Position numbers and translations under genes: made by a program. Positions 11,404 to 13,641 of a DNA stretch of 64,000 nucleotides are shown here, one piece after another. The number at the start of each line of letters is the position of its first letter. The first letter of the stretch is position 1. The notes under the pieces were generated by a model. That model ran no database searches. It was not told where the DNA came from and saw nothing but the letters and a program-made list of their open reading frames with translations. The stretch lies in NCBI GenBank assembly GCA_019058445.1, contig JAHPZA010000009.1, positions 256,001 to 320,000 of the forward strand, in the 5' to 3' direction. This DNA is from Promethearchaeota archaeon (GTDB lineage: Archaea > Asgardarchaeota > Lokiarchaeia > Sigyniarchaeales > SOKP01).

Positions 11404-13641
11404 CTATAGAATTCTTTTCAATTCCAAAATTAAAGCAGAAGGATTGTAGCGATCGAACGCAAATACTTCGGCTTTTGCATATTTGCGAAAATTCTTTTTG
11501 ATTTTTTCTGCCGAGTAAGGATGGATTCCTAAAGCCTGGGTAGCATAACTTTTCTTAGGTTCTAGAACTACTGTATGAATCTTCTGCTTGGCTAATTTTT
11601 TCTGTAAATCTTTCATTTCCTCAACTACTAACATGTAATCATTTTCAATTTGTGCAATAAGATCAGGATGTTTCACTGAAATATTGGCTCCACAATCAGA
11701 AAGAACAAATATAACAGGAATAATATTTCTATTCTTTAATTTCTCAACCTTAATTAATTTCATGCATTTTTGTAATGCGGCCGCCATTGGCGTATAAGAT
11801 TTTCCTTTAATATGTTTTAGCTTTCCCAAAGCGGTTTTAAAATTAACCGTAGGTTTCTGGAGGACGATAGCTTCTTTTCCCCTAAAAATTATTAAAGCCA
11901 GTTTATCTTTTTTACGATACCCTTCCTTTTGCAAAGATGAGATGACGTCGGTCATTTGCTTGATAACATAATACATCGAAGCTGAGCTATCTAACACAAA
12001 AAAAAGAGCTAATGGAGCACGATATTCATAGATTTTATCCATCAGATCATATTTATCAAAATGTATGGGAAATTCCACATTTGTTTTATTGTACACTACA
12101 TTTTTTAAATAATTCCGAATAGTAGCATCCAAGGCAATACTTTTGGGTAAATTTACAGGAGTTCTATAAGACACATACCTGCCCTTTTGAGATGATGCTA
12201 CTTTAATTCTCCTTCCTATACCTCGACCTCCATAATCAGATATCTTCCTATCCTTTCTTATGTTATCCAAAATTGATGTCATTTTTTTTTCCATTTTATA
12301 TATAAATGGCATAACGTCAAGTTCATAATCTGAAAGATTAAACTCTTTTTTCTCCTCTTCAGGGATATCTTTTACTTTCCAGCCTCCGGCAGGAACCGAT
12401 TCTCTTTTTCGTTTATCGGGATATTTAGGAGGTGGTAACTTCTGTTCTTTAGTCTCGGGAATATCTACTTTCTTTGGATCGATAGATTGTCGCTGAAATT
12501 CCTTCTGAGGAGTATCATCATGTTTTAACGGTCCTTCTGTATCCTTATTTGGTTGATATATTTTAGGGTCCTCGTAGGCCTTTTGTATTTTTCCATAAAC
12601 TTCCGCAATTTTTGCTTTAATTTCCTGAGGAGTCATCTCATAATGTAAGGAAGCGATTCGATGCTCAAAGACTAGATCCATAGCTACATTGAGATCTTCT
12701 TCTGTAATCTTTTTTCTATTACTTAAAGCGGCATGAGCACGAGCACATCTAATAAAAGTGATATCTGCTCGTTGAGAAAAAATCTCTAAATCATTTACGA
12801 TTTTTGAGACCAATTCATATATTGAAGCCGGAATTTCTACATGCTTTAATATCTCTCTGGCATTAATTATATTCTGTTTAAGGCTTTCTTGGTCTTTTTC
12901 GTATTTTTTAATAAACTCCTTCGGATTATCGTCAAAATCAATCACTCTTTTAGTTATTTCAGCTCGTAAGGTGGGATCACGAGGAGCTCTAATTTTCACT
13001 TCTAATCCGAGTCTATCCGCTATCTGTGGTCGGAGTTCTCCTATCGAATCCTAATTCGAAGCGAATTGAGAATCTTCGGGATTCATACTCCCGACCAAAA
13101 CGAATCTTGAGGGATGTGATACTGAAATTCCTTCTCTTTCAATAATATTAACACCTGAAGCCGCAGCATCCAAAAGTACATCAACAATGTGGTCTTGCAA
13201 GAGATTTATCTCATCTACATAAAGAATCCCTCGATTAGCTTTAGCTAATAACCCAGGATGAAGCTCGGAGGTGCCTTCGGTAAGCACTTTATCAATGGAA
13301 AGAGATCCGCACACCATATCTTCTGTGACTCCAAGTGGTAAGTTTACAAGACGCATTTCTCTGATTTCTGTTTCAAGTTTACCTTTTTCCTTCTTTTCCC
13401 TACAGGATGCACATAAATCGTCGAGGTTTGATTTAGGATCACAAGCGAAATTACAATCTCCGATAACTTCTATTTTAGGCATAATTTCGACTAGGGATCT
13501 TACAGCAGTAGATTTACCAGTACCTTGGTGTCCAGTTAGCAATACACCACCTATGAGAGGGTCAATTACATTTAAAATTAACCCCATCTTCATTTTATCC
13601 TGACCTAAGATCGCTGTGAAGGGGAAATTAATTTTTTTCAT
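11404..13641 (-). CDS. Magnesium-chelatase ChlI/ChlD-like AAA+ ATPase fused to a vWA domain. Spliced CDS = join(13641..13073, 13042..11404), 735 aa
   Basis: FPFTAILGQ, Walker A GHQGTGKST, PGLLAKANRGILYVDE (Walker B). After removing 30 nt it reads GSMNPEEGELRPQIADRLGL. The vWA has MIDAS DSSAS, TP and LSD. Exon lengths 569+1639=2208 nt, in frame. Confidence 0.9.
13043..13072 (-). other. 30-nt bulge-helix-bulge (BHB) mRNA intron containing an in-frame TAG
   Basis: Minus strand TCC-CGAA-GA^T-TCTC-AATTCG-CTT-CGAATT-AGGA-TTCG-AT^A-GGA: 4-bp central helix CGAA/TTCG, two 3-nt bulges and flanking helices. Canonical cuts regenerate a GAA (Glu) codon. Confidence 0.88.

Follow-up and report, generated by a model that had tools for sequence, protein, structure and literature searches.

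Why does a chelatase-like gene of an archaeon carry a stop codon inside an invariant motif, and could the interruption be removed before translation? The gene in question lies on the minus strand of a 64,000-nucleotide stretch of DNA, here called the window, which is C9:256001-320000 of genome G000 (4.6 Mb in 10 contigs, 92.6% complete, 31% G+C). A TAG codon at 13053-13051 divides the gene (13641..11404) into open reading frames (ORFs) of 196 and 531 or more codons, both in the same frame; reading across the TAG gives GSMNPE-DSQFASN*DSI-GELRPQ, where the asterisk is the stop. Comparison with related genomes suggests that positions 13043-13072 are very probably an archaeal bulge-helix-bulge (BHB) intron inside the coding region of a cobaltochelatase-like mRNA. 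A first-pass annotation, made from the letters of the window, had proposed an Asgard archaeon as the host, and this is borne out by the closest public genomes, metagenome-assembled genomes (MAGs) that carry the name Promethearchaeota archaeon.

The interrupted gene and its insert

The gene and its parts, as predicted, are as follows.

11404..13641, minus strand: interrupted gene for a 735-aa protein with AAA+ (ChlI-like) and vWA (ChlD-like) parts, from ORFs and Pfam; the closest NCBIfam family is TIGR02442, 'putative cobaltochelatase'
13073..13641, minus strand: exon 1, 189 codons plus the GA of a split Glu codon (ORF; Pfam Mg_chelatase/AAA_5; TIGR02442 positions 1-180)
13043..13072, minus strand: putative 30-nt BHB intron with the in-frame TAG (13053-13051), from sequence, fold and frame restoration
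11404..13042, minus strand: exon 2, the A of the split Glu codon plus 545 codons and the stop (Pfam AAA_lid_2 and VWA; TIGR02442 positions 182-620)

The two exons abut across the junction on the TIGR02442 profile; on TIGR02030, exon 1 covers positions 1-184 and exon 2 positions 186-316. Exon 1 encodes a protein 96% identical to that of the intron-less ortholog in genome G003. Excision of 13072..13043 gives a 735-aa ORF with the motif NPEEGELRPQ (sequence GSMNPEEGELRPQ), the split codon being rejoined as GA plus A to give GAA (Glu), and the predicted spliced junction reads AATCCCGAAGAAGGAGAACTCC. When all excisions of 26-35 nt are tried, this is the only one that regains the conserved MNPEEGELRP.

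How is the insert built? On the RNA, its ends and flanks can be paired as listed here.

13087..13097 / 13027..13036, minus strand: exon-exon helix UGGUCGG-g-AGU / ACU-CCGACCA, 10 bp with one bulged G (minimum free energy (MFE) folds)
13079..13081 (5' strand) and 13039-13041 (3' strand), minus strand: outer helix h, UCC/GGA (pairing)
13075..13078 / 13045..13048, minus strand: central 4-bp helix CGAA/UUCG, 4/4 pairs Watson-Crick (pairing)
13072..13074, minus strand: 5' bulge GAU, predicted cut between 13073 and 13072 (sequence; a relative's contig diverges exactly at 13073)
13042..13044, minus strand: 3' bulge AUA, predicted cut between 13043 and 13042 (sequence)
13049..13071, minus strand: inner helix h', UCU/GGA (13071-13069 / 13051-13049), closing the hairpin (fold)
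13067-13062 / 13058-13053, minus strand: 6-bp hairpin AAUUCG-CUU-CGAAUU with its loop at 13061-13059 (fold)

Two 3-nt bulges on opposite strands, a 4-bp helix between them and the flanking helices h and h' make up a canonical hBHBh' motif. In archaea the canonical order, which can be read from the case of tRNA introns at 37/38 and from the A-I pair rule, is the 4-bp helix followed by the bulge, and the insert has this order on each strand. The minus strand from 12900 to 13260 was read again and agrees with the first-pass annotation, which had described the split at the TAG, the shared frame, the 30 extra nt, the BHB pairings, the cuts GA^T and AT^A and the 735-aa product; every one of these details stands.

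The main element of the MFE fold is the exon-exon helix (13097-13087 with 13036-13027). A fold constrained to the BHB has an energy of -23.4 kcal/mol, as against -25.0 kcal/mol for the MFE fold, a cost of 1.6 kcal/mol. Of 200 shuffled versions of the 83-nt region, 193 fold less well than the real sequence (z = -2.1). In G000 the exon-exon duplex reaches -19.2 kcal/mol; 94 intron-less orthologs average -12.2, and among them it would stand at the 4th percentile. The value for the sister genome G003 is -7.6. The intron sequence is single-copy in the 4.6-Mb genome, and a 27-nt degenerate pattern found no further copies in JGI metagenome contigs. Four extra matches to the 15-nt intron core in genomes of the family lie in unrelated contexts and are put down to chance.

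Is the inserted DNA genuine?

The genome is metagenome-assembled, and an insert of this kind might be an artefact of assembly or binning. That is almost certainly not so. In the likely source run, the insert lies within a 40.6-kb Logan contig of even depth (24.5); a second sample in the same study yields a contig that is identical over 13038-13256, extending only 5 nt past the 3' end of the insert. Homologous inserts are also found in MAGs from other studies and assemblers. A contig of a related organism, from another study, matches up to exactly 13073 and then goes on without the intron.

The same site in related genomes

Which relatives share the interruption? Among 40 relatives sampled, 29 orthologs have no insert and all read GSMNPEEGELRPQ, and of 80 additional species representatives 77 lack it too. 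Across the family, 135 genomes were searched; 122 have the chelatase-like gene (121 besides G000). In nine of these 121 the same codon is interrupted, by inserts of 30, 31 or 32 nt.

32-nt insert at the same site: genus g2, seven genomes (G108, G116, G117, G126, G127, G140, G145)
31-nt insert at the same site: genus g11, G105
30-nt insert at the same site, with an unrelated AT-rich hairpin: genus g3, G148

Alignment of orthologs had been suggested as a check on the first-pass annotation, and its outcome favours an intron: all nine inserts keep a BHB whose predicted cuts restore the frame. In each of them a single register restores MNPEEG[ED]LRP, and that same register gives a paired central helix and bulges of 3 nt. 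The central helix has 4/4 pairs at every same-site insert except that of G148 (GAGG/ACUU, 3/4); in the 31-32-nt inserts it is CCGA/UCGG, with bulges AGN and AAA. Within this intron family the central helix is invariant and gives no covariation there. The inner helices of the same-site introns differ in sequence yet pair, and in G105 and G148 the inner helix is kept around hairpins of unrelated sequence. The register in G000 is shifted by one base, so that the split codon is cut as GA^A where the 32-nt forms cut G^AG, and Glu stands at the junction in both. Selection for splicing would predict that a change in length goes together with a shift of the cut register, so that the frame is kept; decay would not.

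After excision, the ORFs are intact, at 737-756 aa, in all six intron-bearing orthologs that could be read full length. Nonsynonymous differences between intron-bearing orthologs are few (pN 0.10-0.15) with synonymous ones saturated (pS near 0.78), and dN/dS is 0.10 for G116/G108, the sole unsaturated pair. Purifying selection on the intron-bearing genes is strong.

These observations bear on a simpler explanation, in which the insert is a recent pseudogenising insertion that is never removed, the gene being dead or yielding only a 196-aa N-terminal ATPase fragment. The stop codon in the insert, and the same-genus genomes that read through the site with no insert, are what this explanation would expect. 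It is nevertheless very unlikely: the excised ORF has no other lesion in its 735 codons, and nine other genomes are interrupted at the same site, six of them having full-length genes that BHB excision leaves intact and on which purifying selection is strong. Moreover, the lengths of 30, 31 and 32 nt are each matched by a BHB register shift that keeps the frame, unlike junk DNA.

The chelatase-like gene is also interrupted elsewhere in two other genomes. In G130:C174 (L210) and G141:C75 (L211), a different 30-nt in-frame insert with a TAA lies about 162 codons after MNPEE and reads EVYGK[LQRITL*TGK]IEKA. The BHB that can be drawn there is only a relaxed one, with 3/4 central pairs. This insert may be a second intron site in the gene.

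Other probable introns in protein genes of the same genome

Is the chelatase-like gene a singular case, as had been supposed when the insert was first described? The genome contains several such genes, and the putative intron described above is one of several BHB introns predicted in its protein genes.

C6:396802-396833 (L033:1303-1334), minus strand: carbon monoxide dehydrogenase (CODH)/CooS-type gene, predicted 32-nt frameshifting BHB intron with an hBHBh' of 8+4+8 bp (scan and orthologs)
C6:165873-165902 (L034:2374-2403), minus strand: gene for an old yellow enzyme (OYE)-like NADH:flavin oxidoreductase of about 670 aa, predicted 30-nt BHB intron with an in-frame TGA (scan and orthologs)
C10:684116-684145 (L083), minus strand: EF-2 paralogue, candidate 30-nt in-frame insert with a TAG in the G domain (BHB ACAG/CUGU, 9-bp inner helix)
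C4:384841-384869 (L087/L089), minus strand: aIF2-gamma gene, predicted 29-nt frameshifting BHB intron in the P-loop, between GHVDHG and KTT (pairing and orthologs)

The CODH and OYE-like genes are the two best-ranked candidates of a genome-wide scan, and both were confirmed against orthologs. For CODH, the predicted product across the junction, AAAPEY/MEQKATIDAIFALAFGLYT (AAAPEY/MEQKAT), is identical to that of 19 relatives with uninterrupted genes, and the intron was not seen among the 40 relatives sampled. For the OYE-like gene, the predicted QLYHGGA/YAFPQIIGRTPI (HGGA/YAFPQ) is identical to the closest ortholog, and further orthologs show substitutions but no insert. Besides the EF-2 paralogue, G000 has a second EF-2-like gene at C9:663661, an uninterrupted ORF of 730 aa.

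The gene for aIF2-gamma is the most telling of the four. This translation factor is generally held to be essential, and each of the 36 genomes with a match has one copy of its gene. The predicted intron (junction context GGTAAAACCACG) is common to seven genomes of five genera, in each of which the central helix pairs in one register only, with 4/4 pairs in six genomes and 3/4 in G020. In G018 the helix AUGG/CCAU has become ACGG/CCGU, a compensatory change on both sides; the inner hairpins are unrelated in sequence and still paired, while the outer helix is weak or absent. The insert must leave the RNA because a P-loop frameshift in a single-copy essential gene, kept in several genera, would otherwise be intolerable. 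The predicted aIF2-gamma intron is the strongest indirect evidence for working mRNA BHB splicing in the family, and a like insert carried by seven genomes in such a gene also speaks against regarding the chelatase-like gene as a pseudogene.

Might the ribosome deal with such inserts, and not the splicing machinery? The TAG of the chelatase-like gene could be read through, for example as pyrrolysine to give a protein longer by 10 residues, or the ribosome could bypass the insert, as in T4 gene 60. The length of the insert is a multiple of three and its sole stop is TAG, and ARAGORN reports a tRNA-Pyl(cta) candidate (anticodon CUA), as yet unverified. Within the invariant NPEEGELRPQ, read-through would put 11 residues, one of them decoded at the TAG, in place of a Glu, and it could not rescue the frameshifting inserts: those of 31 or 32 nt in relatives, the 32 nt of CODH and the 29 nt of aIF2-gamma. 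As for bypass, there are no matched take-off and landing codons around the insert that would give NPEEGEL, and the 31-32-nt frameshifts of the relatives are explained by BHB cuts. Translation of the unspliced message is thus extremely improbable.

Splicing enzymes and a proposed pathway

How would a BHB intron be removed from the chelatase-like mRNA? In the proposed pathway, the exon-exon helix (10 bp) and the outer helix (3 bp) would bring both junctions together in the transcript, where they would sit in the two 3-nt bulges with the 4-bp CGAA/UUCG helix between them. EndA would cut behind the second base of each bulge and RtcB would ligate the exons, joining GA and A into GAA (Glu), while the 30-nt intron would probably be circularised. 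The mature mRNA would then encode the intact 735-aa protein.

The presence of both enzymes had been presumed when the insert was first described, and both are encoded in G000: an EndA-family ORF of 203 aa at C9:770595-770843 (L001; PF01974, 68 bits) and RtcB at C1:114713 (PF01139, 574 bits). The EndA of Asgard archaea has been described as an (alpha-beta)2 type with a broad-specificity L1 loop (PMC5829648). In the 4.6-Mb genome ARAGORN calls no more than 23 tRNA genes, 19 of them with introns; besides tRNA-Pyl(cta), its output includes a tRNA-SeC(tca) candidate. Most tRNA genes of G000 are presumably too interrupted for calling. Asgard tRNA genes have been reported to be heavily interrupted (bioRxiv 10.64898/2026.10.13.758758; PMC11291895), and the intron count in G000 fits these reports.

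Points against an intron, and the limits of the motif

Several points weigh against reading the insert as a spliced intron. Splicing at the RNA level is inferred from a comparison of DNA; a search for RNA runs with the gene listed none, and one run labelled metatranscriptomic gave no match. The closest relatives, the genomes of the same genus whose gene reads through the site, are intron-less, and the G000 copy is without within-genus conservation. The 31-32-nt forms are relaxed, with one extra U between the inner and the central helix, and the 32-nt forms with the extra U can equivalently be read as a 5-bp helix with a 2-nt bulge. The expected beta subunit of EndA was not found with PF01974 even at E<=10, the ORF named above being the single EndA-family ORF in G000. 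Finally, ORF-repairing matches across the genome show no excess of the canonical motif, with 58 for the canonical geometry as against 49-65 for decoy bulge geometries. Further counts are likewise without excess (61 versus 48-62), and after filters for codon usage, Shine-Dalgarno sequence and absence of a start the numbers are 19 versus 10-17, which was also judged to be no excess.

How much, then, does the motif itself tell? A minimal hBHBh', defined as 3+4+3 pairs with an intron of 14-120 nt, occurs 104,405 times in the genome, and 546 of these instances 'repair' an ORF in a strict scan. A BHB motif by itself proves nothing, because minimal hBHBh' motifs are abundant in an AT-rich genome. A different figure applies when the insert is given: by our own estimate, the chance of a BHB falling exactly on its ends is about 1e-4 (10 pairs, p about 0.39 each). 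Since chance motifs are frequent and the decoy comparison shows no genome-wide excess of canonical motifs, the case for an intron in the chelatase-like gene rests on homology and not on motif statistics.

A genome-wide scan for BHBs in apparently split genes, another of the checks suggested earlier, was fruitful in part: it found the companion introns in the CODH and OYE-like genes, but as a statistical test it gave nothing beyond the decoys. The chelatase-like intron ranked 6th of 209 short candidates by constrained folding energy. Chance motifs at the junctions of adjacent genes dominate the scan, which consequently yields no count of mRNA introns in G000; a relaxed scan was swamped by noise. 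Elsewhere in the 64-kb window, the scan gave only chance matches at gene junctions. Two candidates that had ranked high were rejected: C6:1108042-1108107 consists of two separate genes, the second starting at its own Met, and C9:156215-156236 was judged intergenic on inspection.

Relation to known systems

Has anything similar been described? A cbf5 pre-mRNA intron of Crenarchaeota was reportedly described by Watanabe et al. in 2002. The cbf5 gene of some Crenarchaeota is the only archaeal protein gene with confirmed pre-mRNA splicing, other cases being merely predicted (Yokobori et al. 2009, PMC2738675). Like the putative chelatase intron, the cbf5 intron is short, lies in the coding region, has BHB or BHB-like flanks and causes gene callers to split the gene. 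EndA cuts it between the second and third bulge residues, as predicted here, and gains and losses have left it patchily distributed, as is the case here. The differences lie in the host and in the motif. Cbf5 is a pseudouridine synthase of Thermoproteota with the intron at the codon of the catalytic Asp, whereas the gene described here encodes a chelatase-like AAA+/vWA protein in Promethearchaeota (Asgard); most cbf5 motifs are relaxed, whereas that of G000 is fully canonical. Unlike the cbf5 case, several genes are interrupted in one genome. Furthermore, splicing of cbf5 was shown by cDNA, whereas that of the chelatase-like gene is predicted from DNA.

The BHB introns of archaeal tRNA and rRNA share the motif, the cut positions, EndA and RtcB, the size range and repeated lineage-specific gains at sites capable of forming a BHB. 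They differ in that the chelatase-like host RNA is translated, so that its reading frame has to be regained on excision. Papers on Asgard tRNA introns (bioRxiv 10.64898/2026.10.13.758758; PMC11291895) do not mention introns in protein genes, and full-text searches, with subscription journals largely outside their reach, turned up no account of BHB introns in Asgard protein genes.

A likeness to HAC1 and XBP1 splicing had also been drawn, with the suggestion that the intron might act as a switch. Both there and in the pathway proposed here, mRNA splicing is non-spliceosomal, a cut-and-ligate reaction catalysed by proteins that alters the protein made; an unspliced chelatase-like message would give a 196-aa product. 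RtcB is the ligase of metazoan XBP1 splicing. However, Ire1, a regulated stress sensor, cuts in the loops of twin stem-loops, whereas the sites predicted here are in the 3-nt bulges of a BHB and would be cut by EndA, with nothing suggesting regulation. Similar introns are found in housekeeping genes (aIF2-gamma), which points to constitutive removal, and the proposal of a switch is not upheld.

What would be new is that an Asgard archaeon has a fully canonical BHB intron in a metabolic gene, together with the examples in the CODH, OYE-like and EF-2 paralogue genes and in essential aIF2-gamma. If these readings are correct, the lineage closest to eukaryotes routinely splices mRNAs with tRNA-splicing enzymes, and introns in the Asgard lineage have been gained, lost and possibly moved between lineages. 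Standard gene callers would then split or truncate real genes, affecting metabolic reconstructions from Asgard MAGs. The genes described here would offer a testable system for how introns colonise protein genes where there is no spliceosome.

Origin and possible transfer of the putative intron

Where did the intron of G000 come from? In a gene tree of 67 chelatase-like orthologs, the G000 gene is sister to the intron-less gene of G003 (support 100), inside an otherwise intron-less genus clade (support 96), and the presence and absence of the intron require at least four changes on the tree. The intron was probably acquired recently in the lineage of G000. It shares 26 of 28 positions with the intron of G117 (genus g2), and the two genes have about 72% DNA identity with saturated synonymous sites.

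It is tempting to see BHB introns in Promethearchaeota as mobile elements that have invaded many protein genes, essential translation factors among them, that of G000 having arrived by lateral transfer and homologous recombination from another genus, in a homing-like manner, with about 25 nt of exon co-converted. This proposal is a tentative and rather doubtful one. The tree, the likeness to the G117 intron and the following features fit it. In the 48 nt next to the intron on each side, identity between G000 and the intron-bearing genes of genus g2 is 0.78-0.83, as against 0.72-0.74 over the rest of the gene; between G000 and G003 the relation is reversed, with 0.78 in the intron flanks and 0.84 elsewhere. 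The Ser codon of the GSM motif (13087-13089) differs within three independent sister pairs, being AGT in the member with the intron and TCA or TCG in the one without. Among all sequenced intron-bearing genes, only that of G105 (TCA) departs from AGT or AGC at this codon, and a switch between AGN and TCN takes at least two base changes.

Some of these features could also arise if selection had convergently favoured an exon-exon helix presenting the BHB. In the three sister pairs, exon-exon pairing with and without the intron amounts to -19.2 versus -7.6, -19.2 versus -8.1 and -14.7 versus -15.8 kcal/mol; in two pairs the intron-bearing member has by far the stronger helix.

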